A DNA stretch of 64,000 nt from the IMG/VR virus record IMGVR_UViG_2840949845_000002, positions 22,434-86,433 of that record; one strand, written 5' to 3'. Positions 4,498 to 31,478 of the stretch are shown here, piece after piece (positions within the stretch are counted from its first letter, which is position 1; each line of letters begins with the position of its first letter). This DNA comes from a virus. Lineage: Duplodnaviria; Caudoviricetes. Made by a program: the position numbers and the translations under genes. The notes under the pieces are model-generated. The model was not told where the DNA came from. It ran no database searches and saw only the letters and a list, made by a program, of their open reading frames with translations.

Positions 4498-4530
4498 CAG
4501 CTTTACGCTCTGAGGTGCTGAGCGGCTCCG

Positions 4531-6427: not shown

Positions 6428-6430
6428 GGT

Positions 6431-6895: not shown

Positions 6896-6942
6896 TTATT
6901 TTGAGTCATCCTGACGAACCCTGTCAGTCCACGGAGGACGCC

Positions 6943-10006: not shown

Positions 10007-10819
10007 TTATTCGGTTTCTCGGTCGGGGCGGAAGGCCTTTTGCATCGCGATGGTGGCGTCGAGGATGCGCAGGCCGATGGTTCGGTCGATTTCTCTGGCG
10101 ACCAGGGTGCGCATGGTCTTGATGACGCGCAGGTCGGAATTGGTCAGGGGGCTGGACAGCAGGGGGTTGGGGTCCAGGTCGGTGTCGATGCCGCGACGCC
10201 AGAAATCCGCCGCCTTGCACGCGGCGCAGAAAGGCGGGTTGCGGGTTTCGGGGATTGAGTTCGCGCCGATCGGCGGCGTCAGCAGCGCGCGCAGCCGGAT
10301 CTGGTCGTCGCGTCCCAAGCTGCGGTAGGCCATGACCATCGATTCTTCCTCGGGCGCCAGCGTGCCGGGCAATCCGGTGGTTCTGGCGCCGGTCGCGGCG
10401 TCGAACACTTCGACCATCTGGATCGTCACCAACGCGGAGCGTTCGGTGTCCGACTTCGCCGTGATGTAGAGCGCTTGCTTTTTGGTGAGGTGGAAGGCGC
10501 CTTTGCTCGGGCGTCCACGTCGGCGGGGAAACTCCGCCGTGCGGCGGAGTTTCCGATCAGCGTCGGAAATAGGTTCATCTGGAGTGTGCGGCGCCTGCCG
10601 CGAACTGCGATTTTCCGGGACATCCCGGAAAACCTCTCCGAAGGTCATGAGCGCGGCCATGTGGCGTTCGATCAACCGACGAATATCATGAGGGTCCACC
10701 ATCCCCAACGCTTCGGCAAGCCGGAGGTCGCGGATGCGCGGCTCGTGATTGATCGTGGTGTCGATGTCGGTCGGTGATAACGCGGGCAAGGCTTGCCCGT
10801 TGTCGCCCATGATGTTCAT
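10007..10819 (-). CDS. Rha-like antirepressor/regulatory protein, copy 1
   Basis: EPRIRDLRLAEALG...IRRLIERH...GRP...HLTKKQALYITAKSDT; AGGAGG RBS; lies downstream of a C4-like RNA. Confidence 0.7.
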   Translation of the reverse strand: MNIMGDNGQALPALSPTDIDTTINHEPRIRDLRLAEALGMVDPHDIRRLIERHMAALMTFGEVFRDVPENRSSRQAPHTPDEPISDADRKLRRTAEFPRRRGRPSKGAFHLTKKQALYITAKSDTERSALVTIQMVEVFDAATGARTTGLPGTLAPEEESMVMAYRSLGRDDQIRLRALLTPPIGANSIPETRNPPFCAACKAADFWRRGIDTDLDPNPLLSSPLTNSDLRVIKTMRTLVAREIDRTIGLRILDATIAMQKAFRPDRETE

Positions 10820-10878
10820 GGCGATGGCCTCCTGTGCGGCATTGCCGACGGAGGGCTGCTTTCTAGGACAACCCTGGC

Positions 10879-10953
10879 GCCGGGGGCTAGAAACCTGTCA
10901 CAGGTCAGGCCGGACTATTCCCCTTGCGGGTCTTGTATTATCCGACCCCCGGC
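10879..10953 (-). ncRNA. C4-type antisense RNA, copy 1 (seeds CCUGUG and UUUCUAG)
   Basis: 75 nt closed by GCCGGGGG/CCCCCGGC, CCC-GCAA-GGG hairpin, GGCCUG-loop-CAGGUU stem; complementary targets at 11027-11046, 10859-10867 and 10831-10836. Confidence 0.8.
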
Positions 10954-11026
10954 AAAGGGGTATGCACCGGACGGACTCCGGGCACGAAAATGGCCGCATC
11001 GCGAAAAACGCGCGGACGGCCTGCCG

Positions 11027-11086
11027 CCTGTAAGGAGGTTTCTAAGCTCCGGGGCGAAGAATGGCTCCGCTGGGCGGCAGGGTCAA
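11027..11086 (-). promoter_or_regulatory. Promoter (-35 TTGACC) and upstream C4 target pair of cassette 1
   Basis: TTGACC at 11086-11081; targets TTAGAAAC and TTACAGG downstream on the - strand. Confidence 0.6.
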
Positions 11087-12846: not shown

Positions 12847-13632
12847 TCAGTGGGACGTGAAGTGCGGAGCGCCCGCGCGCCATTGCGTGGTCTTGACCGA
12901 CAGGATTTCGCCGATCTGGTCGCGCACATCCGCCTTGCCGGTGACGTCCCACAATTCCGCCATCACCCGGTTGATCTCGACCATCAACTCCGTCGCCCGT
13001 TCCAACGCGATCTGGACGTCCACCGGCAGAGCCAGAAAGCCGGGCGCCCAGGTCGGCGGGGAGAGTCTCGACCGGATTTGCGGCCGCGCCGTCAGTTGGG
13101 GACGGCGCCGCCCCCCTTGGATGACGGGTTGGATCGGCTGGCCCCGCCGCAGCGCGTCGAGGGCGGCGCCGGTCAGCGTGTTGCGGACCCGCGTTTCCTC
13201 CAGCGCGGCGGCCATGCGGGCGCGCTCGTCGATCCGATCCAGGTCGGCCTTGGTCAGCGCCGGGACGGGCGGCGGCGACGCCCGACCGCTGGTCACGGTG
13301 TCGAACACCTCGACGATCTGGATCGTGATCTCGGTCGCCCGTTCCGTCTCGGCCTTGGTCGCGATGTAGATCGCCTGTTTCTTCGTCAGCCAGAATTCGG
13401 CGGCGGGGCGCCCGCGTCCGGGATTTTTCCGCACGGTGCGGAAAATTCCGCCAAGCCGCTCCAGCGCCTCTCGGTGGCGCTCAATCAGCGGGCGGATATC
13501 AGCGGAACGCTTGAAACCCAGCGCTTCGGCCAAGCGCAGATCCAGAATGCGCGGCTCGCCGTTGATGGTGGTGTCGATGTCGGACTGTGATAATCCGGGC
13601 AAAGCTTGCCCGTTGTCGCCCATGCTGTTCAT
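12847..13632 (-). CDS. Rha-like antirepressor/regulatory protein, copy 2
   Basis: N-terminal domain closely similar to copy 1 (MNSMGDNGQALPGLS...EPRILDLRLAEALG...WLTKKQAIYIATKAET); unrelated C-terminus. Confidence 0.7.
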   Translation of the reverse strand: MNSMGDNGQALPGLSQSDIDTTINGEPRILDLRLAEALGFKRSADIRPLIERHREALERLGGIFRTVRKNPGRGRPAAEFWLTKKQAIYIATKAETERATEITIQIVEVFDTVTSGRASPPPVPALTKADLDRIDERARMAAALEETRVRNTLTGAALDALRRGQPIQPVIQGGRRRPQLTARPQIRSRLSPPTWAPGFLALPVDVQIALERATELMVEINRVMAELWDVTGKADVRDQIGEILSVKTTQWRAGAPHFTSH

Positions 13633-13691
13633 GGCGATAGCCCCCTTGTCGGCATTGCCGGCGGAGGGCCGCTTGTCACGACGACCCTGGC

Positions 13692-13766
13692 GCCGGGGGC
13701 TGACAACCTGACAAGGACAGGCCGGACTATTTCCCTTGCGGGTGTTGCATTCATCCGTCCCCCGGC
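13692..13766 (-). ncRNA. C4-type antisense RNA, copy 2 (seeds CCUUGU and UUGUCAG)
   Basis: Same 75 nt scaffold as copy 1; targets at 13841-13860, 13673-13679 and 13644-13650; TTGACG -35 at 13902-13897. Confidence 0.8.
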
Positions 13767-13997
13767 ATAGGGGCATGCGCCGGACAGAATCCGGGCATGA
13801 AAATAGCCGCATCGCGAAAAAACGCGCGGGCGGCTTGCCGCCTTGTCATGGAGTTGTCAGGCTCCGGGGGGAAGAGTCGCTCCGTTGGGTGGGCCGCGTC
13901 AAGGGGCGCAGTGTTGCATTTTCCGCGAACGGTGCGCGGAAATTCCGGCAAACCGTTCCAAATCTCCTGCTGCAGTATTTACACGAGAAAAGCGCTT

Positions 13998-16223
13998 TCA
14001 AAGACGAACAGGAATATCAATAACCGGCGCAAGTTGCTCAAGTGTAGTTCTGTAACGGCGCACCACCTGATCGTAGATGTCTGGCACTCGTGGAGCTTTT
14101 ACAGTTACGATAAGTGCATACCTCAGCTTTTCGGCGGGCCTAAAATCTTGTCCGCCTGCTCGAGCGTTATAGTGGATATCAAAAACAGGATCTTTCAAGC
14201 TCTTTCCTCGGAATGACTGGGTATGATGCAAACAGTTATCCCACTTGTGTGCGTCGCGACGTAGTTCATCCTCAGTGGCATAGAGCTTGCCCTGCTTAAA
14301 GAAGCTTGTTGTTTTAGGGTGTATGGATTCCCCATCAATCTTATCTTTATTTGGTCGGAATAATACCTCAAGTCCTGCTCTTGTATAGTTGCTTGGGTGA
14401 TGTGGATCTACAGTGGATGCGTAGCAAATCGTTGCTGATATCTCAACCATTCCACTTAATTGATCGGCTGGGACAGGAATTTGAGCTCTGATGTATTTGG
14501 ATGCGCTTATTTCACCCTGGTAAACAACCCGAACCACGCCGGGAGCGCACACAACAATTTCCTCAAGATCCCGAGCTACGCGTCCCCAGCCAACTTCCGT
14601 ACGTGGATAGCCGCTCGGGGTGCTCGTATGAACAAGCAGTGCATTGATCGCCAACCCTCGGAGAGAATCGCCAAAGTGAGCCCTGATGCCCATCCCCATG
14701 CGCATTGTGTCTGGAGCGGCAAAGCTTGTCCCACCGGTCGGCATGAGTGTTGGGACTGAGCCAGGCCCCAGCACCAGATAGGGCTCGGCTATAGAACCAC
14801 CGAAGCTGACGAGCGAGGGCTTGACTCGACCAGGGCTTCTTCCTGGACCTATTGAACTGTAGGGTGCCCTTTTCCATGCAGAACTGCGAGAATCAGCAGC
14901 GCCAATTGATAATGCATTGACACAATCAGCTGGAACTTGAATGCGGTTGTAACCGTTATCCGCGTCGCGCTCTCCTCCATTTCCTACCGCGATAGTCGCC
15001 AGGGTTTCACCATCTGATAGGTATTCATCAAGAACTGCTGTCCACGCGTGGATCTCATCATCCTCGACTGGCAACTCTGGGCCGATACTAAAGTTGATAA
15101 AATCATAACGCTTACTTGCGAGTGCATCTTGAATACGCTGCAATGTTTCATAAAGCTCCAACGGATTTTGGTTCAGATCTCCGTCAAGAACTCTGTAGTG
15201 ATCAACTCGTGCATACGGAAGGGGTAAAGGAAGTCCAGGCGTAATATGGCCGAAAAGAGCTGCCGATGTCACATTAAGCCCGTGCTCAAGATAGTCGTCT
15301 TCAGCTGGACCAATGCCACTCGGTTCGATAGCTGTTGCCCAAGCAGAAACTGGATGATCATGAGGCAGTCCACCATCAAAGATGGCCGCCTTGATAGAAG
15401 GATCAATAGGCGGTCCTTTGGGCAATGCAATTGACGGCGTAGATGGGATTGACGACGAACGGAAAGGTGGTCGTAACAGCCGAAGCTTTGGCATTTCTCT
15501 AACCGCCCGAACAAAGCTATAGGCTGCTAGATATTCTGCTTGCTTGCGAGAAGCGCTGACAGGGACAAAGCTCACGCCCGACGATGTGATTCTATGATCA
15601 AGGTCTGGCTTAAATCCTAACCCGTGAACGTAATCAACAAAACCCTCTAGGACGAAAGAATCGACCATTGATCCGCCACCATGCAGGGCCACTTCAAAGA
15701 CAATTTCTTCCGATTCCGATGTAATACTCTTCAGTTTTTCGGCAGGTTCTGGTGCCGACAACTGTTCGATGGCGGTTAGTTCGTCAGCTCCCGACGATCC
15801 AGCCCACCAATCCGGGATTGACGTCGACCAGTCACGAAACGCTCGTCGAGATCCCGCGACGAAGAGCTCCGTCGTAAGAGCTTCCTCCGGTTCCCGGCCC
15901 TTGCTGCGCGCTGCTGGGAGTATTCTACGAGGACGACTTCCAACGGCTCGAAGGCCGACCGCTGTCAAGAGCTTGCCGGGAAAATAAGATTTCGCAATGT
16001 ATTCTGGATGCAAGGTCATCCGCATAACAGCATGATCATGCGGACAAGCTTTCTCTGGTAGCGCATCAAGGCTCCTAACCGCTGCCGATAACATTGGCGT
16101 AAGGCGCGACTGCGCTTGAAAGAACGTGTATGGGGCCTGTTTATCAGGATTTCCTGTGCGAACGATTACTGGCTCCGTTAATCGCTCACCCTTGCCCAGC
16201 AGAAAGTTTCTCTTGTTCGACAT
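13998..16223 (-). CDS. ietS: S8 (subtilisin-like) serine protease, IetS-like
   Basis: Catalytic triad motifs IFDGG, EHGLNV, GGTSFAAP; oxyanion motif AVGNGG; directly downstream of an AAA ATPase. Confidence 0.8.
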   Translation of the reverse strand: MSNKRNFLLGKGERLTEPVIVRTGNPDKQAPYTFFQAQSRLTPMLSAAVRSLDALPEKACPHDHAVMRMTLHPEYIAKSYFPGKLLTAVGLRAVGSRPRRILPAARSKGREPEEALTTELFVAGSRRAFRDWSTSIPDWWAGSSGADELTAIEQLSAPEPAEKLKSITSESEEIVFEVALHGGGSMVDSFVLEGFVDYVHGLGFKPDLDHRITSSGVSFVPVSASRKQAEYLAAYSFVRAVREMPKLRLLRPPFRSSSIPSTPSIALPKGPPIDPSIKAAIFDGGLPHDHPVSAWATAIEPSGIGPAEDDYLEHGLNVTSAALFGHITPGLPLPLPYARVDHYRVLDGDLNQNPLELYETLQRIQDALASKRYDFINFSIGPELPVEDDEIHAWTAVLDEYLSDGETLATIAVGNGGERDADNGYNRIQVPADCVNALSIGAADSRSSAWKRAPYSSIGPGRSPGRVKPSLVSFGGSIAEPYLVLGPGSVPTLMPTGGTSFAAPDTMRMGMGIRAHFGDSLRGLAINALLVHTSTPSGYPRTEVGWGRVARDLEEIVVCAPGVVRVVYQGEISASKYIRAQIPVPADQLSGMVEISATICYASTVDPHHPSNYTRAGLEVLFRPNKDKIDGESIHPKTTSFFKQGKLYATEDELRRDAHKWDNCLHHTQSFRGKSLKDPVFDIHYNARAGGQDFRPAEKLRYALIVTVKAPRVPDIYDQVVRRYRTTLEQLAPVIDIPVRL

Positions 16224-16226
16224 GTT

Positions 16227-17345
16227 TTAATCCTCAAATTTATCATGCGTTCTGCATGCGTTCCTGATGGTATCTCTGCTGATCCCCGTAAGCTCAGACA
16301 CTTGCCGTTGTGATAAGATATCTCCAAGAACCATTTCTGAAGCAATTGCCAGTCTATTAGGTTTGTCGATTTCCATTATTCGTTCTCGGAGAATTTGTTG
16401 CAGATGAATTGATAGAGGTTGCTCACTTAGCGCTGCTGCCCTTCTGGCCGCATTTACCCGTCTCTCTACGTCACTGAAAGACAGCCCATGGAAAACTATA
16501 GACATCGCTCGCACCCAATGATTTGACTTTTCAACGTGCTCAGTTAATAGGGCGTCGAGAAGAGCCTGAAGACCAGATATATCTGGCATCGGAAAATCAA
16601 CCACAATTTCAAATCGACGCCAAACGGCAGGATCTAGCAATCCAGCATGATTTGTTGCTGCAATTAGCAAACCTGTTGGCGGCCAGTCATCAATTTCTTG
16701 AAGAAGAACAGTTACAAGACGCTTTAGCTCTCCAATTTCACTTCCATCATCCCGTCTTTTTGCAATTGCATCCAGTTCATCCAAAAGAAGAACGCAATCT
16801 ATTTTCTTTGCATAATCAAGAACGTTGCGGATGTTGTTCCCTGTGCGCCCCAGGTAACTACTCATTACAGCGGCCAGATCAAGAACAAGCAGCGGCCGCC
16901 CCATTTCATGAGCAAGCCAGCGGGCTGATAGCGTTTTTCCCACACCCGGAGGGCCTGTGAAAAGCACGGTACGTGTTGGGTTGAGCCCCACAGCGGCAAG
17001 GCGGTCGGAATTGAGACGCTCAAGCATTAATTGGCTCAATCGCTCCTTGATCTGAGGGGCAAGAACCGGCGGATGATCAATGCCTGTGACCGTCTCTACT
17101 CGGAGAAGCTCCAGTCGAGAGTCCACATCGACTGGGAGAGGTTGCTCTGCCTGCCGACGGAGAGGGGAGGACCTCGTCGGCGCCTCGCGCAACAGCGATG
17201 TTAAGCCATCCCCGAGTTCAGGAACCTGTTGCCCGTACTTCTTTGCAGCACGATGGATGAAGAGTTGCACATCCTGCTGGCGCCCTGAGAGCGCCAAGCG
17301 GGAAAGGCGGACGAAATCAGACGAAATTTCCTTTTGGAAGTCCAC
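16227..17345 (-). CDS. ietA: AAA+ ATPase, IetA-like
   Basis: GPPGVGKT, LLLDELDAIAKRR, AATNH, LDPAVWRRF; 3 nt from the S8 protease; GTG start inferred. Confidence 0.85.
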   Translation of the reverse strand: MDFQKEISSDFVRLSRLALSGRQQDVQLFIHRAAKKYGQQVPELGDGLTSLLREAPTRSSPLRRQAEQPLPVDVDSRLELLRVETVTGIDHPPVLAPQIKERLSQLMLERLNSDRLAAVGLNPTRTVLFTGPPGVGKTLSARWLAHEMGRPLLVLDLAAVMSSYLGRTGNNIRNVLDYAKKIDCVLLLDELDAIAKRRDDGSEIGELKRLVTVLLQEIDDWPPTGLLIAATNHAGLLDPAVWRRFEIVVDFPMPDISGLQALLDALLTEHVEKSNHWVRAMSIVFHGLSFSDVERRVNAARRAAALSEQPLSIHLQQILRERIMEIDKPNRLAIASEMVLGDILSQRQVSELTGISRDTIRNACRTHDKFED

Positions 17346-17499
17346 TTCACACCGGCATATGAGGAAAACAGGAACGAAATGAGTATGGCGGGATGGACTA
17401 AAATTCGCAACATGTTTTGGTATGTCGTCCATTTCACCGGGCGATGCCGCGCGGTGCGCGGCGGCACGTCCAGATCCAGCCCAAGCTGCGCCGCGCCCC

Positions 17500-17751
17500 T
17501 CACGGCCCGCCCTCATCGCGCCGGTCCACCGGCGTCGTCAACCGCATCTCGCCCAGCGCCTGGGCCGCGAATCGCTTCACCTCGCTGCTGAAGGTGTAGC
17601 CGGGGGTCTGGCCGACATGGCCCGGCGGCGCGCAGGACGGGCGCAGGAAATCCCACAGCACGAACACCCGGTCGCATCGCAAAACCCGGCGGATGCTGTC
17701 GGGGAAGCGATAGACGCCGTTTTCCCAAATATCATCAGGGCTTAGGGGCAT
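17500..17751 (-). CDS. Small phage hypothetical protein
   Basis: 83 aa ORF coupled to the replication initiator. Confidence 0.5.
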   Translation of the reverse strand: MPLSPDDIWENGVYRFPDSIRRVLRCDRVFVLWDFLRPSCAPPGHVGQTPGYTFSSEVKRFAAQALGEMRLTTPVDRRDEGGP

Positions 17752-17754: not shown

Positions 17755-18561
17755 TCAGGCCCTCGTTTCGGGGTGGGACCACAGGGAGGCTTGGCCGGAC
17801 AACCGGGTTTCGACTCGAACCTCGACGTTGCGGATCCGTGGCAGCTTGGCCAAATCGTCGGAAAACCGCTGGCGAATCTGATCGGCGACGAAGCGGCTGG
17901 GGGCGGCGATGAGCAGAAGCTGGTTGCCTGTGACCGACACCCGGCAATCACGGAACCACTGGCCGTGTCGGTGGCCGCCGATCCGCTGCGCGATCAGGCC
18001 GTGCAGATCGCGCTCGGTCTCGTCGGGCTGTCCGGCGCTCACGCGCTCACGCGCAAGGGCGCGCGTGGGTTCACGGGTTATATCACAGGGTTTGGGCGAC
18101 TCCGGCGTCGGGCAAAAATCCCGCGTTTTGTCGCCCAAAGCCGAAGGGTCTGTCGCCAAATCCGGGCTTTCCCCGACTCCCCGGTCGGCGACGCCGGTGT
18201 CGGCGAAAGCATCGCCCGGACCAGCGTCCAGCGCCTCCTCCCGCTCCAGCCAATCCAGGCGAAAGCGCATCCGCGTCGCCTGCCCTCGTCCGCCCGGACG
18301 ATCCCGCTCGATCACGCCGCTGGCCAGCAGGGCGGCGCGCGCCCGCTCCACGTCGCGGGTGGACAAGGCCGAGTCCTGAGCCACGGTTTCGACGCTGGCC
18401 CAGGTCAGCAGATCGCCCAGGCCGCGCCACATCTCGCGGTTCACACGGCCCAGCATGACCAGGGCGACCACCTTGTCGCGTGGCTTCAGCGCGGAACTGG
18501 AAAGCACGGCGTCACGGAAGCGGCCCACGATTTCCCGAAAGTCACAGAGTTTTGCGGTCAT
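17755..18561 (-). CDS. Replication initiator: N-terminal HTH plus C-terminal DnaA_N-like domain
   Basis: TWASVETVAQDSALSTRDVERARAALLASGVI (wHTH); QWFRDC...IAAPSRFVADQIRQRF resembles DnaA domain I. Confidence 0.7.
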   Translation of the reverse strand: MTAKLCDFREIVGRFRDAVLSSSALKPRDKVVALVMLGRVNREMWRGLGDLLTWASVETVAQDSALSTRDVERARAALLASGVIERDRPGGRGQATRMRFRLDWLEREEALDAGPGDAFADTGVADRGVGESPDLATDPSALGDKTRDFCPTPESPKPCDITREPTRALARERVSAGQPDETERDLHGLIAQRIGGHRHGQWFRDCRVSVTGNQLLLIAAPSRFVADQIRQRFSDDLAKLPRIRNVEVRVETRLSGQASLWSHPETRA

Positions 18562-19036: not shown

Positions 19037-19270
19037 TCATGCCCGGCCCTGGGTTGGCGTCGGCACAGCCCGCGCGATCACGCGCTGGTAGCCCGCCGCG
19101 CGCCGCAGGAACGCGGCGAACGCGTCCGCCTCATCGTCGGCCAACTCGGCCAGATCGGCGACGCCATAGAGCGTCTGGGTCAGCCGCTCGACCTTCGGAA
19201 CGGTGGATGGCGCGGACGCGGCAAAGGTTTCCCAGGCGGCGAGCGCGGCCTGTTGCGCGCGGGTCAGCAT
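19037..19270 (-). CDS. Hypothetical protein
   Basis: 77 aa ORF with GGAAGG RBS in the early operon. Confidence 0.5.
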   Translation of the reverse strand: MLTRAQQAALAAWETFAASAPSTVPKVERLTQTLYGVADLAELADDEADAFAAFLRRAAGYQRVIARAVPTPTQGRA

Positions 19271-19516
19271 CGCGTTGCCTTCCTTCGCGGAAACGTGAAC
19301 AGGGGGGCCGTTTGTGCATGAGAAATCGGATGGTAAGACCACCACACCCGGATGCCGCAGCCTTCCGATGAATAACCTCTGGCATGCTTGACCAGATTGC
19401 GCCGAATCAGTTCAGCGGCGCCGCTCTTGACTGCCGGGGAACGCTCCTGATGGCGTCGGTCAGACATGAGGCCATCCCCAATTGACCGGCGAGCGGCGGT
19501 CATCTCTGATTCGCCG

Positions 19517-19804
19517 TCAGCAATCACCAGCTTTCTCCCTTTGCTTGGCTGTTGCTGCGTCACGCAAAGCGAGCGATTGTTCCCCGGTCAACAACCCTGG
19601 ATGAGGGGCTGGCGTTGGAGCCACAAAATCATTTGGGACCAGGCGATCCATGGCCTCCAGCGTCTGGAGCTTTGGATTTCCAGACGGCGATAGGACTTCG
19701 TTGACGGCGTACCAGCTGATCCCAGCCGCCTTCGCTGCCTGATGGCGGTTTAGGCCAGAAGACAGGAAATAGGAGCGAATGCGGTGAACGGCTTGGTCGA
19801 TCAT
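19517..19804 (-). CDS. Cro-like HTH regulator
   Basis: LNRHQAAKAAGISWYAVNEVLS..GNPKLQTLEAM; divergent from the repressor across the operator cluster. Confidence 0.7.
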   Translation of the reverse strand: MIDQAVHRIRSYFLSSGLNRHQAAKAAGISWYAVNEVLSPSGNPKLQTLEAMDRLVPNDFVAPTPAPHPGLLTGEQSLALRDAATAKQREKAGDC

Positions 19805-19812
19805 GGTTCTAA

Positions 19813-19880
19813 TTTGCGCTATAGCGCAAACTTGTCAAGCGCCATAATCACGCTACAGCGCAATCGCGTTCTAGCGCAAA
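19813..19880. promoter_or_regulatory. OR-like triple operator
   Basis: Perfect 18-bp palindrome tttgcgctatagcgcaaa 19813-19830; variants cgctacagcgcaa 19851-19863 and tcgcgttctagcgcaaa 19864-19880. Confidence 0.8.
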
Positions 19881-19897
19881 ATCCGCACAATGGAGAT

Positions 19898-20284
19898 ATG
19901 GCTACAATAGATGTCGAAAGAGAGCGTCGCCGTTCAGCCCTGATCCAATTTTGGGAAACGAACCGGCACGCCTTGAAGAGTATCCGCCAATGGGCTGAAG
20001 CCTCGAAGGTGGGATACAATACTCTCAATGAATTTATCCGACGCAAGAAGGATAAAAACATGCTTGCTGACACCTACGAGAAACTTGCTCGTGGGGCCAG
20101 CATTCTTTTAAGCCGCGATGTAACAATTCATGAGTTGTTGAATGAGGAAGCTTTTGACGAAAAAAGCGAGGCAACTCAACGCATAGAGCGTATCGCGCTC
20201 CTTATTTCTCATCTTCCCGATCATGAGCAAGAAGCTTTCGAGGTTGTCCTCCAGGGGCGAGTTCAAGCCCTCGGGAAGTCTTAG
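19898..20284 (+). CDS. CI-like HTH repressor without an S24 peptidase domain
   Basis: SIRQWAEASKVGYNTLNEFIR HTH, 128 aa, GGAG RBS. Confidence 0.75.
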   Translation: MATIDVERERRRSALIQFWETNRHALKSIRQWAEASKVGYNTLNEFIRRKKDKNMLADTYEKLARGASILLSRDVTIHELLNEEAFDEKSEATQRIERIALLISHLPDHEQEAFEVVLQGRVQALGKS

Positions 20285-20399
20285 AAAAACGCCAAAAAGC
20301 AATTCTTTCAACTTTTTCAAGATCGGCATCAGTGAGACGTGACAGCAGCTCAATAATTTTCTTTCTTCGATTGGCCGCCCGGCTGGTCCCAGATGTCAC
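20202..20399 (-). CDS. Putative small protein resembling the repressor C-terminal helix pair
   Basis: GAGGT RBS 7 nt before GTG 20399; RRKKIIELLSRLTDADLEKVERIAFWR aligns with the CI C-terminus. Confidence 0.45.
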   Translation of the reverse strand: MTSGTSRAANRRKKIIELLSRLTDADLEKVERIAFWRFSKTSRGLELAPGGQPRKLLAHDREDEK

Positions 20400-20427
20400 T
20401 GCACTTACCTCTGCTTGCGAAATCAAA

Positions 20428-20459
20428 TTCACCCGACCGATACGCGTCGGTCGGGTGAA
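20428..20459. terminator. Perfect 13-bp hairpin (terminator/attenuator candidate)
   Basis: ttcacccgaccga-tacgcg-tcggtcgggtgaa. Confidence 0.55.
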
Positions 20460-20463
20460 CAGC

Positions 20464-20904
20464 TTATGCGGCCAATGGCTCAACCCAGAGCCAGCAGCCT
20501 TCGGGCGTAAACGGCCCTGCGTCCTTGGCGCTCACAGCCTCATCATAGGTTGGCATCTCGATTCCAGCCGCAGCAAGCGCGGCCCGCGTGTTGTCCCAGG
20601 CCGTCACGCGCTGAGGCCCTTCCGGCGGAAAGGGGTCGTGCGCAATCAAATGATCGTCACCAAAAAGCTGCTCGCTGATGCGATGCACGAAAAGATTGTC
20701 GAGAAGAAGGACATGCATGGCCTGATCCGCCGCATAGGGCAGAGCATAATAGCGGCAAGGCTGGTGCTTCTGCGCATCGCTCAAGATTGCTTTAAGGTGA
20801 CGGAAGCCGGTATCCCGTAATTCCTCTGGATGATTGAAGCGCTTCACCATGGCATTTTCATGCTTTGTGAAGTCAACATCGATGACATTCTTAGCCTTTT
20901 CCAA
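20464..20904 (-). CDS. Hypothetical protein with a DUF1399/GRDP-like motif
   Basis: LPYAADQAMHVLLLD...LFG...IAHDP resembles P..VD..WH..ILDT...FG..IHHDP; AGGAG RBS. Confidence 0.6.
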   Translation of the reverse strand: MEKAKNVIDVDFTKHENAMVKRFNHPEELRDTGFRHLKAILSDAQKHQPCRYYALPYAADQAMHVLLLDNLFVHRISEQLFGDDHLIAHDPFPPEGPQRVTAWDNTRAALAAAGIEMPTYDEAVSAKDAGPFTPEGCWLWVEPLAA

Positions 20905-20913
20905 TATGCTCTC

Positions 20914-21966
20914 CTATGATTTGCGCATCTTCGCGCGTGTTATCGCCGAAATTTTGAAGACCAACGCAGCCAAGCTGGTTAAATCTCCGGCAGCAAACTT
21001 GGTTCCTCGCAGCTTGTCTTTGATGTTCCTGATCTGCGTATAGACCGTCGCCTCGCTGGTTGACCGACGCCGGGCGATCTCACCTGGCCCAAGCCCGGAG
21101 CCAATGAGAGCTGCGACGCGGGCTTCAGCCGGGTGCAAGCCGAGCGCTCGCTCCAGCGCAGACGCGATCGCAGCATCGTCTTCTCCAAATCGAGAGATCA
21201 CAATAATTGCTGTTCCAAGTGATTGTCCGCTGGAGATTGAAGCAAAATGAACGCCACCACTGTATGACAGTGGCAATACTTTATAGAAGTCCTGGAGAGT
21301 GGCTGCGCTCGATACGGCGCAGTCCAATTTGGCGCAGTCATCCGGGTCTGTGGCTCTAATTCTTCCAAAATCATCGAACATCATGGATGTTTCAGATGAT
21401 ATCAAATCGATGAAGCTATCATTTAAATGAAATCTATTCATATTGACATCAAAAATGCCCACAGCTAAATCCAATAAATTTAATGAACAATGCATATTAT
21501 TCAAAAAATCATTGACGGTTAACATTTCCTCAAAAGAATTTCCACGAATCTTTGTATTGATGTAATTCTCAACACCAGATGTCTGAATACAGACTCGCGA
21601 TTGGACGCACGTCCCATCTCCGTATAGACGATGAGAAACAGACATCCTTCCAGATGGATATTCACTGATCCAATCCAGTCCTGTGTTAAGTCTTCGCGCA
21701 ATTCGGACGTTGGATATCCAATCGGCGGGATTGGCGACGGCAACCCTGTTTCCAATCAGGCCAGCTTCAAGGAGCTTCCAGAACAGCGATTCATGTGTCT
21801 CTGAGGTGTAGTCAGAGACAGGGGCAATTCGTCTTTGAGAACCGTTTGCCCAGATAATTTGGTCTGTCGGGCTATACACCAAAACCGCTCCTCCCAACGG
21901 CTGTGAGGCGCGGATAAAGAGAATTGCATCCAAATTCAAATCAGAAGGTAAGGGCAGATTGTCCAT
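20914..21966 (-). CDS. PAS-domain(s) plus LuxR-type HTH transcriptional regulator
   Basis: VLVYSPTDQIIWAN and AVGIFDVNMNRFHLNDSF PAS-like starts; C-terminal LHPAEARVAALIGSGLGPGEIARRRSTSEATVYTQIRNIKDKL. Confidence 0.8.
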   Translation of the reverse strand: MDNLPLPSDLNLDAILFIRASQPLGGAVLVYSPTDQIIWANGSQRRIAPVSDYTSETHESLFWKLLEAGLIGNRVAVANPADWISNVRIARRLNTGLDWISEYPSGRMSVSHRLYGDGTCVQSRVCIQTSGVENYINTKIRGNSFEEMLTVNDFLNNMHCSLNLLDLAVGIFDVNMNRFHLNDSFIDLISSETSMMFDDFGRIRATDPDDCAKLDCAVSSAATLQDFYKVLPLSYSGGVHFASISSGQSLGTAIIVISRFGEDDAAIASALERALGLHPAEARVAALIGSGLGPGEIARRRSTSEATVYTQIRNIKDKLRGTKFAAGDLTSLAALVFKISAITRAKMRKS

Positions 21967-22108
21967 TTATCACAACCGGAACTAAGACAAATTTAATGTT
22001 ACGCTACCACGTATGGAATGTGACCAGTACCAAAATTTTGGTATACGGTGTGAGAATGTCGTTTTCTGGGGCCTGGCTTTGGTTTTCCAGGCGTTATCAG
22101 GATAAAAA

Positions 22109-22158
22109 TTGCGCTATAGCGCAAACATGAGCCTTGATAAATTTGCGCTGTAGCGCGA
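22109..22158. promoter_or_regulatory. OL-like double operator
   Basis: ttgcgctatagcgcaa 22109-22124 (same core as OR) and tttgcgctgtagcgcga 22142-22158. Confidence 0.8.
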
Positions 22159-22191
22159 GCATGCCTCTTCTCCTGATGAAGGGCGAGCAAA

Positions 22192-22527
22192 ATGGATAGG
22201 CGCGACGAGACGGATTGGCATCATTCCCCCAACGGCAGCACGCCGTCCCACCGACTCAGCCTCTTCAACCAGCGGCGTGCGTCCATTGAGGCGCAATTCG
22301 CCATGGGCGCGATCGGCATCGCCAAGCGGCGCGATCTTCTGATCGCCGCGCGCGACGACGCTGGGATCACGGGCATGCGGACCAACGCCAAACCGACGGT
22401 TCCGCTGGGGTTGGGAGCGAGCGAGGAGAGTGAGCGGCGGCGGCGGCGGCGGGCGGACCAACGTCGGTACGCCCGCAAGCAGGCCAGTGATGCCGTTGCG
22501 CCGATGGAGGTGGGCAACCATGGCTGA
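22192..22527 (+). CDS. Arg-rich early hypothetical protein (N-like position)
   Basis: First ORF after OL; contains ERRRRRRADQRR. Confidence 0.45.
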   Translation: MDRRDETDWHHSPNGSTPSHRLSLFNQRRASIEAQFAMGAIGIAKRRDLLIAARDDAGITGMRTNAKPTVPLGLGASEESERRRRRRADQRRYARKQASDAVAPMEVGNHG

Positions 22528-23224
22528 GACCGCTTCCGACCGTCAGCGCGCCGCAGCGCTGCTGCGCAAGCTGCGCGCCATCACCATAGAGGCCGGCGCC
22601 AGCGAGGCCGAGGCGATGACCGCCGCCGCCATGGCCCGTCGGCTGGTTGACCAGCATGGTCTGCCCGAGAGTGGCGAGCCAGTCATTGAGGCGCGGGTCT
22701 TCGTCGGTCGGGTGCGCACCCGTCCAATCGACAAGCTGTGGTCGGCGATTGGCCGCTTCTGTCATGTGTCGGCCATTTTTTGCCCTGAGGCGCGCGGCAT
22801 AGAAATCGCCTACATCGGTCGCGCCGCCGATGTGATGCTGGCCGAGTGGCTGCACGCGGTCCTGAAGCGGCACATCGACAAAGCTCTGGCAGAATTCAAG
22901 ACGCTGGCGGAATACCGCCGTCGGAAGCCAGCCCGCCGACGCGTCGCCGCGTCGGCCTTTGTCGAGGCCATGGCCCAATCCCTGCGCACCCGGCTCGACG
23001 CCATGGCCGATCAACGGATCGCCGAGCCGAAATTGGCGGAAGCCCGTCGGTGGATCGCCAACCGTTATGGCCAGTTGGCCGACATCAAGATCGCCTCGAT
23101 CTCCGACGCGCAGGTTGACGGCGCCCGGCGTCGAGGGCGGCAGGCGGCTGCCGACGTGGCGATCAGCACGCCGGTCGCGGCACAGCCGGCGATTGCCGGC
23201 TTGATTGGAGGATCCAGAGGATGA
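22520..23224 (+). CDS. DUF2786-like phage protein
   Basis: LLRKLRAIT...EAEAMTAAAMARRLVDQHGL N-terminal motif; GGAGG RBS. Confidence 0.65.
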   Translation: MAETASDRQRAAALLRKLRAITIEAGASEAEAMTAAAMARRLVDQHGLPESGEPVIEARVFVGRVRTRPIDKLWSAIGRFCHVSAIFCPEARGIEIAYIGRAADVMLAEWLHAVLKRHIDKALAEFKTLAEYRRRKPARRRVAASAFVEAMAQSLRTRLDAMADQRIAEPKLAEARRWIANRYGQLADIKIASISDAQVDGARRRGRQAAADVAISTPVAAQPAIAGLIGGSRG

Positions 23225-23466
23225 TCGCGATCAAATCCACACCTGCGACCGATTCGACGGCCATCTTCCTGGACCGGCCCCCAGAGCCTCCGGCGACGGC
23301 CTCGCCAGCGGGCGAGGAGTCCGGCCTCGCGCAATGGCACAAAGAGGACGCCGAGAAGGCCGAGCGCGCGGCCGCACAGACTCTGTTGCCCATGCTGCGT
23401 GTCCGTTTGCTCGAAACAGCCCGCATGCATCGCGACTGCGCCGAGCTGGCGCGCGAGGGGGCCTGA
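23221..23466 (+). CDS. Hypothetical protein
   Basis: 81 aa ORF overlapping the upstream stop (ATGA). Confidence 0.5.
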   Translation: MIAIKSTPATDSTAIFLDRPPEPPATASPAGEESGLAQWHKEDAEKAERAAAQTLLPMLRVRLLETARMHRDCAELAREGA

Positions 23467-23468
23467 CT

Positions 23469-23732
23469 GTGGCAGCTAAGGTTTCGGATCTCGTTGGGCT
23501 TCCAAACTGGCCACGCATGCTCAGCCGCGATCAGGCCGCACGCTATGTCGGCGTCTCGCCAGTGCAGTTCGACCGCGAGGTTTCGACGGGCCGCTGGCCA
23601 ACGCCAGAGCGGCGCGGCAGCCGAGTCACATGGGATCGCCGACTGATCGACAGGGCGCAAGACAAGAACAGCGGCATCGTGGCAAGCTCGGAGTCGTCGG
23701 CGCACGAGCCGACGGTTGATCCGTGGGCGTGA
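23469..23732 (+). CDS. Excisionase / AlpA-like HTH
   Basis: WPRMLSRDQAARYVGVS..FDREV..GRWPTP...VTWDRRLID; directly upstream of int. Confidence 0.7.
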   Translation: MAAKVSDLVGLPNWPRMLSRDQAARYVGVSPVQFDREVSTGRWPTPERRGSRVTWDRRLIDRAQDKNSGIVASSESSAHEPTVDPWA

Positions 23733-25563: not shown

Positions 25564-26112
25564 TCAAGCCCGGCGTTTGCTCGATGCGGGATCGGCGGCG
25601 GCGGCGCGGAGTTCCTGGCGAAGGGCGGCGGTGACTTCGCCGACCTCGGTCAAGCGGTCGTCGGGATCGGTCACTGTGGCGACGATCCGATCATGCTCCT
25701 TCGCCGCCCGCTCCGTTGCTTGATGGATGGCTATCGAGACGCCCATCTCCTTGTAGATCAACAAAATCTTCTCGGTTAGCCGCCCCATCAACCGGGCGTC
25801 AGTTGCGGGCGCAAACGTCTCGGCTGTGGCGGTCGGCGCAGTTGACGCAGCAGCGGCGTCGCCGGGCCGCATCGAGCCGTTTCCGGTCGCCAACCAGTCG
25901 AGTGAGATGCCGCAGACCTGAGCGGCAGCGACTATTCCGGACCAGCCAGGGTCGGACGCACCAGACAGCCACTTTTTTACACCAGACAGGGAGGCACCCG
26001 TCGCCTTCGCCAACTCCTCCTGCGTCAAACGCCCCTTCATAGCCAGTCGGAGGCGGTCGCCGAAAGCTTTCCGGTTCGAGCCAAGATCCGTAAAGCGATG
26101 ATCGTTATCCAT
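25564..26112 (-). CDS. Mu-like repressor (XRE HTH)
   Basis: LTQEELAKATGASLSGVKKWLSG.SDP...ISLDWLATG; divergent from ner. Confidence 0.85.
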   Translation of the reverse strand: MDNDHRFTDLGSNRKAFGDRLRLAMKGRLTQEELAKATGASLSGVKKWLSGASDPGWSGIVAAAQVCGISLDWLATGNGSMRPGDAAAASTAPTATAETFAPATDARLMGRLTEKILLIYKEMGVSIAIHQATERAAKEHDRIVATVTDPDDRLTEVGEVTAALRQELRAAAADPASSKRRA

Positions 26113-28547: not shown

Positions 28548-30623
28548 ATGAAGGAATGGCGCTCCGCTGCTGAATGGGCCGACTTGAAGTTGCCCGCTAT
28601 GCCGACGAGCAAAGCGGGAGTCATTCTTCGGGCCACGACTGGAAAATGGAGGTCTCGCCCCCGCGAAGAGCAAGGCGGCGGCCTGGAATACCACATGTCG
28701 TCCCTGCCCACGGCGGCGCAGGTCAAGCTGACGCTCCTGGAGAAGAAGTCCCGGCAATCCGCTGAGACCGCCGCGCCCCCCGCGAACCGGACCGAGCTGT
28801 GGCGCTGGTACGATGGCCTGCCCGACGCCAAGAAGGCCAAGGCCCGCATGCGTGCGGAAATCCTGGACGCCATCGTCGCCCTGCACCGCAACGGCGTCAC
28901 CAAGGACGTCGCCGTCATGACGGTGGCGCAGCATCACAATGTCGGTCCCAGCACGATCTACAACTGGCTGAAGCTGGTCGCCGGGCATGACCGCGCCGAT
29001 TGGCTGCCCTGCCTCGCCCCGCACCATGCCGGTCGGACGGCGACGGTCGAGTGCGATCCCGCCGCGTGGGACATGCTGAAATCCGACTATCTGCGCGCCG
29101 CCGCCCCGCCGTTCAGCGACTGCTACGAACGGATGGTCCGCGCGGCGAAGGAGCAGGGGTGGAGCGTCCCGTCCGAGCGGACCCTGTTGCGCCGCCTTAC
29201 GGCCACGGTGCATCCGGCGGTGATCGTGATGGCGCGCGAGGGGGCGGAAAAGGTCAAGCAGATGTTCCCGGCCCAGGAGCGCGACCGTTCGCACTTCACG
29301 GCGCTGGAGGCGATCAACGGCGACGGCCACCGCTGGGATCTTTGGGTCGAATGGCCGGACGGCACGGTGGCCCGCCCCAACATGGTGGCGTTTCAGGATC
29401 TCTATTCCGGCATGATCCTGGCGTGGCGGGTCGATCAGACGGCGAACAGTTGGTCGGTGCGGCTGGCGATTGGCGACTTGATCGAAGACTACGGCATTCC
29501 GAAAAAGTGCTGGCTCGACAATGGTCGCGACTTTGCCAGCAAGTGGCTGACCGGCGGCATTCCGAACCGCTACCGCTTCAAGGTGAGGGAGGAGGAGCCG
29601 GTCGGCATCCTGACGCAGCTCGGCGTCGAAATCCATTGGACCACCCCCTATTCGGGACAGTCCAAACCAATTGAACGCGCCTTCCGGGACTTCGCCAGCG
29701 ACATCTCCCGCCATCCGGCGTTCGAGGGCGCCTACACCGGCAACAGCCCGGTCAACAAGCCGGAGAATTACCGAAGCCGCGCCATCAAGTTGGAAGATTT
29801 CCTGAAGGTTCTGGCCTCGGAAATCAACCAGCACAACGACCGGATCGGGCGCATCGCTCGAAATTGTCGTGGCCGTTCCTTCCGCGACACCTTCCTCGAC
29901 AGCCACAAGGACGCCGTCGTCACCCGCGCGACCGAGGAACAGCGTCGGCTGTGGTTGCTGGCCGCCGAGGGCGTCACCGTCAGCAACCGCGACGGGGCGC
30001 TCAAGCTGTTCGGCAACCGCTATTGGGCGGATTTCCTGCATCTGCACATGGGCGAAACGGTCGCCGCGCGCTTCGATCCGGAGTTCCTGCACGACGGCGT
30101 GCATGTCTACCGGCTGGACGGCGTCTATCTTGGCCATGCGCCGGTGCTTGAGGCCGCCGGTTTCGACAGCGCCGACGCCGCCCGCGAACACGCCCGTCAG
30201 CGCCGCCGCTGGCTGAACGCCAACAAGGCGATGCTCGACGCCGAACGCCGCATGTCGGCGGCGCAGGTGGCGTCTCTGGTGCCGCTCAATCTTGGCCCCG
30301 CCGCCCCGCCGGAGGCCAAGGTGGTGCAGTTGCCGCGCCCGGTGCTGGATCTGAAGCAGACCCCAAAGCCCGATCTGACCGTCGTGCAAGAGGAACGCCG
30401 CGAAGCGCTCGTCACTGAGTTCCGTCGGCCCGACGCAACGCCCGCGAAGGATGAAAAGACCCTGCGCTTGGAAAAGGCCGCCCGGATCGAGGCGGCGATC
30501 ACCGCCGGGACGGCGGTCGAAGCCGAGGCGGCGTGGTTCACCCGCTACAGCCGCCAGCCGGAATGGAAGGCGTTCAAGCGGCTGGCCGAGGACTTCTCGA
30601 CCGACGCACAAGCGACCGCCTGA
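28548..30623 (+). CDS. MuA-type DDE transposase
   Basis: N-terminal Mu DNA-binding domain (GGGLEYHMSSLP); DDE motifs NGDGH, LDNGRDF, KPIERAF. Confidence 0.95.
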   Translation: MKEWRSAAEWADLKLPAMPTSKAGVILRATTGKWRSRPREEQGGGLEYHMSSLPTAAQVKLTLLEKKSRQSAETAAPPANRTELWRWYDGLPDAKKAKARMRAEILDAIVALHRNGVTKDVAVMTVAQHHNVGPSTIYNWLKLVAGHDRADWLPCLAPHHAGRTATVECDPAAWDMLKSDYLRAAAPPFSDCYERMVRAAKEQGWSVPSERTLLRRLTATVHPAVIVMAREGAEKVKQMFPAQERDRSHFTALEAINGDGHRWDLWVEWPDGTVARPNMVAFQDLYSGMILAWRVDQTANSWSVRLAIGDLIEDYGIPKKCWLDNGRDFASKWLTGGIPNRYRFKVREEEPVGILTQLGVEIHWTTPYSGQSKPIERAFRDFASDISRHPAFEGAYTGNSPVNKPENYRSRAIKLEDFLKVLASEINQHNDRIGRIARNCRGRSFRDTFLDSHKDAVVTRATEEQRRLWLLAAEGVTVSNRDGALKLFGNRYWADFLHLHMGETVAARFDPEFLHDGVHVYRLDGVYLGHAPVLEAAGFDSADAAREHARQRRRWLNANKAMLDAERRMSAAQVASLVPLNLGPAAPPEAKVVQLPRPVLDLKQTPKPDLTVVQEERREALVTEFRRPDATPAKDEKTLRLEKAARIEAAITAGTAVEAEAAWFTRYSRQPEWKAFKRLAEDFSTDAQATA

Positions 30624-30695: not shown

Positions 30696-31478
30696 ATGGA
30701 CGATATGACCGTCGCCCCCTTCCCCGTCAAGTCCGACGCCACTGCCGCCGACGCGACGGAACAACCGCTCGTCACCGCGCCGCTCGCCAACGTGTCGCTA
30801 TTCGCCGAGTTGGCGGAGCGCGTCACAGGCCGCCATCGCGGCCTGCCCGGCATGGCCGTGTGGTACGGCCCCAGCGGCTACGGCAAGACCCGCGCCGCCA
30901 TCTACGGCGCCAACCGATTCCGCGCCACCTATGTCGAGGTTGGCGCGACCTGGACGCAGGCGAAGTTCTGCCGGGCGCTGCTGACCCAGCTCGGCCTGCC
31001 GCCGACCGGCACCGTCGCCGACATGGCGGAACGGATCATCGACGCCCTGCGCGGTTCCCGCCGTCCCGTAATCATCGACGAATTCGACCATGTCGTGACG
31101 CGCAAGTACGTTGATCTGGTGCGCGAGATCCACGACCAATCCGGCGCCGCCATCATCCTGATCGGCGAGGAGATGCTGCCGCACAAGCTGAAGCTGTTCG
31201 AGCGTTTCCACAATCGTGTGCTCGACTGGTGCCCGGCGCAGCCCTGCGATGGGCGCGATGCCGGCATCCTGGTCGGGGTGTTCGCGCCGGGCATCGCGGT
31301 GGCCGCCGATCTGCTGACCCGCATCGTCAAGGAAAGCGGGGGCCGACCACGCCGCATCGCGGTCAATCTGGACCGCGTGCGGGAGTATTGCGAACTGGAG
31401 GGGCTGGACGCCATCGACGTCGCCCGTTGGGGCAGCCGCCCGCTGTTCAGCGGCGAGCCTCCGGCGCGGAGGGCGTGA
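30696..31478 (+). CDS. MuB-type AAA+ ATPase
   Basis: GPSGYGKT, VIIDEFD, ILIGEE, RFHNRV; follows the transposase. Confidence 0.9.
   Translation: MDDMTVAPFPVKSDATAADATEQPLVTAPLANVSLFAELAERVTGRHRGLPGMAVWYGPSGYGKTRAAIYGANRFRATYVEVGATWTQAKFCRALLTQLGLPPTGTVADMAERIIDALRGSRRPVIIDEFDHVVTRKYVDLVREIHDQSGAAIILIGEEMLPHKLKLFERFHNRVLDWCPAQPCDGRDAGILVGVFAPGIAVAADLLTRIVKESGGRPRRIAVNLDRVREYCELEGLDAIDVARWGSRPLFSGEPPARRA

Follow-up and report, generated by a model that had tools for sequence, protein, structure and literature searches.

A tandem-PAS LuxR cassette convergent on a repressor candidate in an integrase-bearing Azospirillum element: a possible signal-responsive induction module

The stretch analysed here, hereafter the window, comprises 64,000 nucleotides (nt) of the IMG/VR virus record IMGVR_UViG_2840949845_000002 (positions 22,434 to 86,433) and corresponds to C1:2181087-2245086 in a genome of 6.46 Mb. 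The closest named relatives of the studied genes are from Azospirillum griseum, A. brasilense and A. lipoferum, and from these gene relatives the host genus is taken to be Azospirillum. Within a small integrase-bearing element of the window, two clusters of palindromes enclose a repressor candidate (cI) and, on the opposite strand, a cassette of two genes, encoding a predicted PAS-PAS-LuxR regulator (LuxR350) and its partner p146, which is followed by a hairpin and a small open reading frame (ORF) that runs into the 3' end of cI. We tentatively consider this block to be a signal-responsive induction module in which a transcription factor and a small protein act on the repressor. Its features are as follows.

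19517..19804, minus strand: cro-like gene of 95 amino acids (aa), divergent from cI; an ORF with 67% identity in the A. griseum element (locus L027)
19814..19879, no strand: right operator cluster (OR), three putative operator palindromes, the one at 19814-19829 perfect, those at 19848-19863 and 19864-19879 with 3 mismatches each
19898..20284, plus strand: cI-like repressor candidate of 128 aa; an ORF with homologues at 60-66% identity
20202..20399, minus strand: small ORF of 65 codons with a GTG start and GAGG 8 nt upstream, in 83-nt antisense overlap with the 3' end of cI
20427..20460, minus strand: terminator-like hairpin directly after the p146 stop codon, with the tail TTGATTTCGC
20464..20904, minus strand: p146, orphan 146-aa partner of the LuxR regulator; an ORF with a structural model of predicted local distance difference test score (pLDDT) 90
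20914..21966, minus strand: LuxR350, regulator of 350 aa with a PAS-PAS-LuxR architecture ending in a helix-turn-helix (HTH), from ORF, model and Foldseek matches
22028..22043, no strand: candidate LuxR box, a perfect palindrome (TACCAAAATTTTGGTA) situated 62 nt before the start of LuxR350
22109..22158, no strand: left operator cluster (OL), two putative operator palindromes, the one at 22109-22124 perfect, the one at 22143-22158 with 2 mismatches

The palindrome TTGCGCTATAGCGCAA, with up to 3 mismatches allowed, is found at five sites in the 64-kb window (19814, 19848 and 19864; 22109 and 22143), a number reached by none of 100 shuffles (shuffle mean 0.26), and genome-wide a single extra site with up to 2 mismatches is seen, on contig C4. 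These sites bear out the initial annotation, made from the sequence alone, which had placed OR and OL clusters about 2.3 kb apart; they fall into groups of three and two at that distance. The AT-richer block that it had described between the clusters is likewise apparent from a GC content of 0.385-0.583 (400-nt windows) across about 19800-22200, as against 0.60-0.70 on both flanks, and this low GC is common to cI and the cassette, unlike the rest of the element, in both the window and A. griseum. With the repressor gene situated between two palindrome clusters and a cro-like gene divergent from it, the block has the layout of a lambda-type immunity region, in which the five palindromes would presumably be bound by cI. 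Promoter-like sequences recognized by eye place operator O1 in the spacer of a promoter that reads leftward and has a perfect TTGACA, and the second OL site in the spacer of a rightward TTGATA promoter, and a -10-like CACAAT lies 6 nt 5' of the cI ATG (TACAAT in A. griseum), suggestive of a leaderless cI transcript of the kind made from the lambda maintenance promoter (PRM). Hexamers of this -10-like type stand 6-7 nt before the starts of both cI and cro (19886-19898 and 19804-19816; ~9380-9397 in L027), so that both divergent transcripts may be leaderless. A consensus promoter scan returned 2 sites, which is within chance, and none at OR or OL; since it listed none of them, the assignments of the rightward and leftward promoters (PR and PL) and of PRM stay putative.

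The 128-aa protein is a candidate HTH repressor by virtue of its context and of a language-model lead rather than a profile match, its language-model (Atlas) features being closest to HTH_3 clusters (0.92-0.95). For cI no usable match was obtained in Pfam (where the only two matches, at E ~0.1, are irrelevant), PHROGs, NCBIfam or a PDB sequence-profile search of the cI family, and none among 50,697 phage records; cro was without a usable match in the Pfam, PHROG and NCBIfam searches. A Peptidase_S24 domain was not found in cI by Pfam or NCBIfam, which agrees with the earlier description of a 128-aa repressor devoid of the S24 autocleavage domain, and a repressor of this type needs another way of inactivation. 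The last ~35 residues of the protein contain a conserved helical motif. Pairs of cI and cro homologues, at 35-48% and 34-53% identity respectively, are present in four further prophage loci, which carry RecT, exonuclease, helicase, antiterminator, holin, tail or terminase genes, and judged by these loci cI/cro is a phage switch family. One of the four pairs (40-48% and 53% identity) is found in another prophage of the same genome (G000:C2, ~94.5-95.3 kb; L026/L044), which has helicase, sigma-factor-like and terminase genes; this pair may be relevant for cross-immunity between co-resident elements.

The domain architecture claimed for the 350-aa regulator, two PAS domains followed by a LuxR domain, is confirmed at the level of predicted structure, with both the LuxR/GerE HTH and a two-copy PAS region recognizable. 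In Pfam the protein itself reaches GerE with E 0.01 and 15.9 bits, below the cut-off of 23.5, but its homologue P0002 carries PF00196 (GerE), and Pfam PAS_8 is detected at residues ~159-202 in three LuxR350 homologues. A word-indexed search recovered 1 relative and an exhaustive search 118 representatives, ~50 of them full length, along with many short GerE-type proteins that align to residues 250-320. The AlphaFold model (41 sequences; pLDDT 91) has two alpha/beta modules (residues 12-126 and 145-258) and a helical C-terminal domain (264-343), and in Foldseek it matches the tandem-PAS protein DosP (9.5e-9), as well as FixL, PpsR and HIF/ARNT, and the phage protein VqmA-DPO (7dwm_B; 8e-6, 205 columns, 16% identity), the latter alignment covering the VqmA HTH. 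Membership in the VqmA family itself was considered and rejected, given two PAS domains and 350 aa versus a single PAS domain and ~240 aa in VqmA proteins, which bind DPO and activate vqmR or qtip, together with the identity of 16%; no VqmA-like protein was present among the LuxR350 sequence-search matches.

The partner gene p146 stands as a 146-aa ORF, but the DUF1399/GRDP-like label initially attached to it is not confirmed: none of 6 family members has a Pfam match at E up to 10, and all that is seen is a weak similarity in fold to a protein of a giant virus named 'GRDP-like' (E 0.14, probability 0.91, TM-scores 0.48/0.50, 124 columns). A PF07173 profile search of the own genome returned nothing, with the controls silent too. 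Searches of PHROGs and NCBIfam and a PDB sequence-profile search of the family gave nothing usable, and fold comparison produced no PDB match (Foldseek best E 0.77; VIA wide best Z 3.6), null results that do not establish a new fold. The language-model (Atlas) features of p146 are those of PF27765 UCP032817-like proteins (29 of 30 matches, score 0.91). Five close relatives share 56-66% identity with it, and across 13 family members D60, H64, D69, H89, D90, W103 and C137 are invariant, a constellation that suggests a metal or catalytic site; the protein may have a role in making, modifying or co-sensing a ligand. No relative was confirmed in scans of metagenome and viral contigs, and a scan of a genome-contig collection yielded A. 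griseum and one doubtful Akkermansia fragment only.

The hairpin behind p146 had been described as perfect with 13 base pairs. Its existence is supported by folding (z = -3.9; none of 200 shuffled sequences folded equally well), and its stem comprises 14 pairs, 13 of them Watson-Crick and one G-U. The A. griseum element has in the same place a hairpin of different sequence, with a 12-bp GC stem and no U tail. The 65-codon ORF, running antisense into the 3' end of cI as first reported, has a syntenic counterpart of 50 codons in A. griseum that overlaps the cI 3' end by ~38 nt, and in both ORFs purine-rich sequence precedes the GTG start. Between the two elements the intergenic DNA is identical at 97 of 191 positions, and the small-ORF frames align with a BLOSUM62 local score of 61, the next best among 36 frame pairs being 37; this comparison of frame pairs is the sole control of the alignment. 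Over a block of 36 codons the two ORFs agree in 13 residues, of which 8 are encoded by different codons, and identity by codon position is 19/20/14 of 36, the third position being least conserved. A motif pattern derived post hoc from the two ORFs matches nowhere else when the genome is translated in six frames. The small ORF is likely to be a real gene; this is not settled, because BLASTP is blind to the similarity and the sample consists of two sequences. Its product has no usable match in Pfam, PHROGs or NCBIfam.

The proposal that this mini-protein mimics cI retains a weak C-terminal likeness: hhalign places its residues 7-39 on cI residues 91-123 with 30% identity (P 0.0011, probability 21%), and BLASTP does not support the claim, so that mimicry is suggestive only. 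Convergent small ORFs 3' of distant cI homologues (L023-L026) were tried as further homologues and rejected, as they share a loose helix motif and the pairwise tests were negative or trivial; hhalign with these ORFs included performed no better than the two-sequence profile. Contigs from RNA libraries of one study (X1, X2), with 95-99% identity to the window, lie on cro, cI, p146, LuxR and the region of the small ORF. They include the stretch 20234-20394, which takes in the cI 3' end and that region, and none covers 20395-20537. These contigs, being unstranded, of low depth and possibly DNA, show neither transcription nor a transcript end.

The same element is found only in A. griseum L-25-5 w-1 (L027/L040), where the gene order is Rha, Rep, orf102, cro, cI, p146, LuxR, orf111, DUF7168, HTH_17 and integrase, and where three operators at OR and two at OL occupy the same places as in the window. 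The three-part unit (LuxR, p146 and small ORF), which the initial annotation had suggested looking for beside cI in other prophages, is present in the same slot of this syntenic element. Identity is highest for orf102 (77%), Rep (70%), cro (67%), cI (63%) and p146 (55%), lower for Rha (51%), DUF7168 (49%) and orf111 (46%), and only 39% for LuxR, which is no closer to LuxR350 than are paralogues elsewhere. The cargo between Rha and Rep differs, consisting of IteA/IteS-like proteins in the window and of TRADD-N-associated TM and EACC1-like proteins in A. griseum; the cassette in the immunity slot was thus retained through an exchange of other cargo. Linkage is likely in a third case, in that the cI homologue P0010 and the p146 homologue P0004 are each encoded on a 4161-nt contig.

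A more distant instance is provided by the sequenced temperate Azospirillum phage Cd (NC_010355.1; host given in the record as A. brasilense strain Cd), in which gp01 is an EamA transporter and gp02 and gp03 are 36% and 33% identical to LuxR350 and p146 respectively; in the record these genes are annotated as transporter, response regulator and hypothetical proteins. The phage Cd cassette converges on gp04, a repressor-like HTH_31 protein of 183 aa, and on its other side, across the record ends, lies the exonuclease (early-left) operon, so that by gene arrangement the cassette occupies the same slot as in the window. A small ORF of 88 codons, whose ATG follows AAGGGAGG at a distance of 7 nt, overlaps the 3' end of gp04 in antisense orientation. 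The gp04 protein and the 128-aa cI are unrelated. Divergent from gp04, at 3686-3949 (plus strand) of the same record (L047), is an unannotated 87-aa ORF with a Cro-like helix-turn-helix sequence and no Pfam match. At the prophage locus L038, LuxR and a truncated p146 (hhalign 99%) converge on a 95-aa HTH_31 gene near an integrase. Convergent placement of the cassette is in this way observed next to three unrelated repressor-like genes, and distant prophages with the cI/cro family have other genes in the slot.

The LuxR350 homologues were followed through 16 loci, comprising the window, L027-L039, L046 and phage Cd. A p146-family gene lies directly 3' on the same strand in 15/16 of them, L039 being the locus where none was detected; among loci found through LuxR itself at E < 1e-40 the figure is 8/9. 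An adjacent EamA transporter gene is present in 9/16 loci, divergent in eight and on the same strand in phage Cd, and integrases, transposases, type IV secretion system or phage genes are situated within 4.5 kb in 12/16, with no mobility marker at L028, L033 and L039 and an ambiguous situation at L046. Judged by these contexts, the LuxR/p146 pair is a mobile cassette. At L030, L034, L035, L037 and L038, one or two small GerE-type regulators (116-212 aa) and a ~147-aa protein follow p146; the extra GerE genes in clusters of the EamA type suggest a longer regulatory cascade.

The box TACCAAAATTTTGGTA is unique both in the window (up to 3 mismatches) and in the 6.46-Mb genome (up to 2 mismatches). 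Other loci have A/T-centred palindromes with locus-specific arms, such as TGTGGAATTTTCCACA, ATATGGAAATTTCCATAT and GTGCAAAATTTTGCAC, and a (C/A)TGTTA motif occurs 20-27 nt downstream of the box. A strict box rule is satisfied at 7/14 loci; in 200 shuffles the average was 0.155 and the highest count 2. The box may mark an autoregulated promoter private to each cassette variant. The OL sites are at least 66 nt from the box, and cI therefore probably does not control the cassette.

These observations can be combined into a scheme for the working of the block. It starts from the anatomy described above, its conservation and the predicted folds, and each regulatory step, like the ligand and the part played by p146, is inferred. 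A small ligand would bind the PAS domains of LuxR350, and the ligand-bound regulator would activate its own promoter through the box. Transcription continuing past the hairpin would then produce both an RNA antisense to the 3' end of cI and the small protein, which, resembling the C-terminal helical segment of cI, would titrate the repressor in the manner of SinI acting on SinR or of a known phage antirepressor. The leftward (cro-orf102-...-rep) and rightward (orf111-DUF7168-xis-int) promoters would thereby be freed, leading to replication and excision. As a part of this scheme, the OR-OL block would be the immunity region of a small integrase-bearing Azospirillum element. The scheme as a whole we regard as possible and short of probable.

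The closest published parallel is offered by modules of a transcription factor (TF) and a small ORF (smORF), in which a phage TF, sometimes of the LuxR or PAS-LuxR type, activates a small ORF whose product inactivates cI without cleavage and independently of the SOS response (PMC10432266). They include VqmA-phage/Qtip of vibriophage VP882 (Silpe et al. 2023, Nature; PMC10432266), and in the published modules the small ORF is divergent from the TF (PMC10432266). The block studied here resembles them in that its 2.3 kb bring together a regulator of the PAS-LuxR type, a small ORF lacking annotation and a repressor devoid of a cleavage domain. It differs in having the small ORF on the same strand, behind p146 and the hairpin and in antisense overlap with the repressor gene; in the wide occurrence of the TF/p146 pair without cI; in belonging to an element in which virion genes were not found; and in its alphaproteobacterial host. 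LuxR350 is also distinct from VqmA-phage in possessing two PAS domains instead of one and in its low identity. With respect to carriage by temperate phages, the element itself lacks detected virion genes, whereas the same cassette and slot are seen in phage Cd and the cI/cro family in prophages.

The second parallel concerns the proposed mode of antagonism. SinI of Bacillus subtilis shares the multimerization surface of SinR, with which it forms a heterodimer, and so antagonizes it (PMC3163267). The small ORF here comparably aligns to the C-terminal helical segment of the repressor; it is unlike SinI in the weakness of this likeness, seen by hhalign and not by BLASTP, and in a gene order that is convergent and overlapping.

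In the immunity region of lambda, cI, rexA and rexB are situated between OR and OL, cI is expressed as a leaderless transcript from PRM, and the OOP antisense RNA acts against cII. Similar to this are the two operator clusters flanking a repressor and accessory genes at a distance of ~2.3 kb, the -10-like hexamer 6 nt before the cI ATG in both the window and A. griseum, and the convergent gene that overlaps the 3' end of a lysogeny gene. Dissimilar are the orientation of the accessory genes, which run against cI and encode a sensor-regulator instead of an exclusion system, and the lack of S24 in the repressor. Phage Cd shares with the window a cassette between a repressor-like HTH gene and an early-left operon and an antisense small ORF with a Shine-Dalgarno site; it departs from it in the EamA gene in front and in a repressor and small ORF unrelated in sequence to those of the window.

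Phage Cd has been listed among phages with LuxR-domain genes (PMC3901668). LuxR solos with PAS domains are exemplified by PAS4-LuxR of Photorhabdus (PMC4235431), and the regulator here is like them in joining a LuxR-type HTH to PAS instead of the domain that binds acyl-homoserine lactones (AHL) and in having no LuxI partner, but unlike them in its tandem PAS domains, its fixed 3' partner p146 and its frequent carriage on mobile elements. No description of the module was found in the literature on Azospirillum LuxR/PAS prophage genes and phage Cd, to which the original phage Cd paper may add.

Several observations weigh against an induction function. The condition under which the initial annotation would have its switch abandoned was a lack of linkage to cI in homologous loci, and this linkage is absent in 14/16: the cassette adjoins this cI family in 2/16 loci only and is next to no visible repressor-like gene in 12/16, from which it follows that the LuxR/p146 pair works elsewhere without this cI. 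Most copies are accompanied by EamA and further GerE regulators on islands, an integrative and conjugative element or the chromosome. The cassette has a promoter box architecture of its own, and no box precedes the small ORF (up to 3 mismatches in the window, up to 2 in the genome). The hairpin between operon and small ORF scores as an intrinsic terminator on the operon strand, and read-through is for this reason an assumption of the scheme; the small ORF lies downstream of the TF on the same strand as against the divergent order of the published modules. BLASTP detects no similarity between the two small ORFs, which are the only two sequences on which conservation is based, nor between the small ORF and cI, where the hhalign probability is only 21%; the small ORF of phage Cd has no similarity to either. 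Profile searches found no virion genes in the integrase-bearing element (~7.4-25 kb), and as a consequence its status as a phage, claimed at first, is not demonstrated and lysis-lysogeny is not strictly the right term; the structural genes of the window, terminase and portal among them, belong to a separate Mu-like prophage starting at ~25.5 kb. Unrelated cargo, moreover, classically settles between a repressor gene and the early-left operon, as rexAB does in lambda. What holds of the proposed signal-responsive switch is its anatomy, the conservation in A. griseum and the recurrence in phage Cd and at L038; general linkage to cI does not.

On the main rival view the cassette is plain cargo, an autonomous sensor or 'moron' that has landed in a rexAB-like slot, regulates only itself and genes of the host or cassette, and takes no part in induction. 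The hairpin would be a terminator that insulates the convergent cI and cassette transcripts from each other. We regard this as a serious possibility, itself not reaching the probable, and place it after the induction module. It accords with the presence of the cassette in 16 loci of varied contexts, including nine with EamA and twelve within 4.5 kb of mobility or phage genes, with a conserved promoter and box architecture whose box is unique to its own promoter, with the terminator-like hairpin, with the distance of at least 66 nt between OL and the box, at which cI probably exerts no control, and with the other genes that fill the slot in distant prophages of the cI/cro family. It accounts less readily for the retention of the cassette in two elements whose other cargo slot was exchanged and for the recurrence of convergent placement next to three unrelated repressor-like genes, and it leaves unexplained the protein-level conservation of a small ORF between cassette and cI. 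That conservation, with its synonymous changes, and the Shine-Dalgarno-like sequences of both elements point to translation, which makes it unlikely that induction proceeds through RNA only, by collision or antisense pairing of LuxR-promoter transcription with cI, the small ORF being untranslated or its product irrelevant. An RNA effect of this kind would fit the convergence and the cI 3' overlap kept in both elements (83 nt versus ~38 nt in A. griseum) and the unstranded RNA-library contigs spanning 20234-20394, where the cI 3' end and the small-ORF region lie, and it too is opposed by the terminator-like hairpin. A Rex-like exclusion or defence unit, in which LuxR/p146 would protect the lysogen against other phages, has in its favour the rexAB-equivalent position and the defence-like IteA/IteS-like pair elsewhere in the element, which scores below curated cut-offs; we think it very improbable, since the PAS-PAS-HTH sensor-regulator architecture is unlike known effectors and p146 matches no known fold. 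The induction-module reading accordingly remains the one adopted here, as a tentative one.

A further extension, to which we attach little likelihood, is that LuxR, p146 and, where present, EamA constitute a complete non-AHL signalling circuit, in which p146 would make or mature the signal, EamA would export it, and LuxR would sense it and autoinduce through its own box, with the repressor-mimicking read-through mini-protein triggering excision or lysis at repressor-linked loci. If true, the element would possess a quorum-sensing system of its own, synthase included, by which exit from the host is timed. What has been worked out of SOS-independent induction driven by a signal and relayed by a TF and a very small antirepressor comes so far mainly from phages of Vibrio and Aeromonas. 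Were the induction reading correct, the principle would be extended to plant-associated alphaproteobacteria as a variant of the TF-smORF kind with new wiring, namely same-strand read-through and antisense overlap, and with a tandem-PAS LuxR, the obligatory partner p146 without a known fold match and a small ORF that may mimic the repressor C-terminus. Regardless of the switch question, PAS-PAS-LuxR/p146(/EamA) represents an undescribed recurrent regulatory cassette of Azospirillum mobile elements, and its presence in the sequenced phage Cd means that, given phage and strain, the idea can be tested there besides in this element.

The remainder of the element, as delineated by Pfam, PHROGs and NCBIfam searches over ~7.4-25 kb, contains Rha-type genes, ParA, DUF3102, a replication initiator and an integrase. 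The genes next to the OR-OL block are the following.

17755..18561, minus strand: replication initiator (DnaA_N, RP-C N-terminal), from profile matches; 70% identity to the A. griseum counterpart (L027)
19037..19345, minus strand: orf102, 3' of cro in the leftward operon; an ORF with 77% identity in the A. griseum element
22192..22527, plus strand: orf111, first gene of the rightward operon; an ORF with 46% identity in L027
22430..23224, plus strand: DUF7168/DUF2786 protein, from profile matches
23205..23732, plus strand: excisionase-like HTH, with PHROG 25900 and 66 on residues 96-164 and HTH_17 at the same place in L027
23723..24919, plus strand: tyrosine integrase of the element, from profile matches

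The C-terminal part of orf102 has a helix motif in the style of the cI C-terminus, and Pfam, PHROG and NCBIfam searches gave no above-threshold family match for it. The true start of the excisionase-like ORF (23205..23732) is probably internal. No convincing direct repeat of an attachment site (att) was found within 5400-25700. The Rha-type genes, at 10010-10819 and 12850-13812, show a duplication of ~640 nt, covering the 5' part of the genes and the region upstream, with 74-92% identity (10387-11029 and 13287-13843). Between Rha and Rep, at 14001-17516 on the minus strand, a low-GC slot houses an S8 peptidase (741 aa) and an AAA ATPase (429 aa), whose best NCBIfam matches are the anti-phage families IteS (1.5e-27) and IteA (5.6e-71), both below the curated cut-offs; the pair also matches PHROGs 3964 and 3757, and the slot looks like a variable one for defence cargo. 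An ORF of 781 aa with low GC at third codon positions (GC3) occupies 7460-9805 on the plus strand and has no match in Pfam, PHROGs or NCBIfam.

The Mu-like prophage immediately adjoins the integrase on its right side and extends over ~25500-47000. It encodes an HTH repressor (25567-26112), a ParB-like protein, the MuA transposase (28548-30620) and a MuB-like protein (30696-31475), and further DUF3164, GemA, a GH108 endolysin, Gp27, terminase, Mu portal, Mom, Mu F and a Mu-like protease. On the left side, 2900-7314 contains a DNA methylase, a DUF3164 protein (a Mu-type gene) and a second tyrosine integrase (4534-5532), with a lone UmuC C-terminal fragment (DUF4113) at 6901-7266; this region possibly represents the remains of another element together with the left border of the integrase-bearing one.

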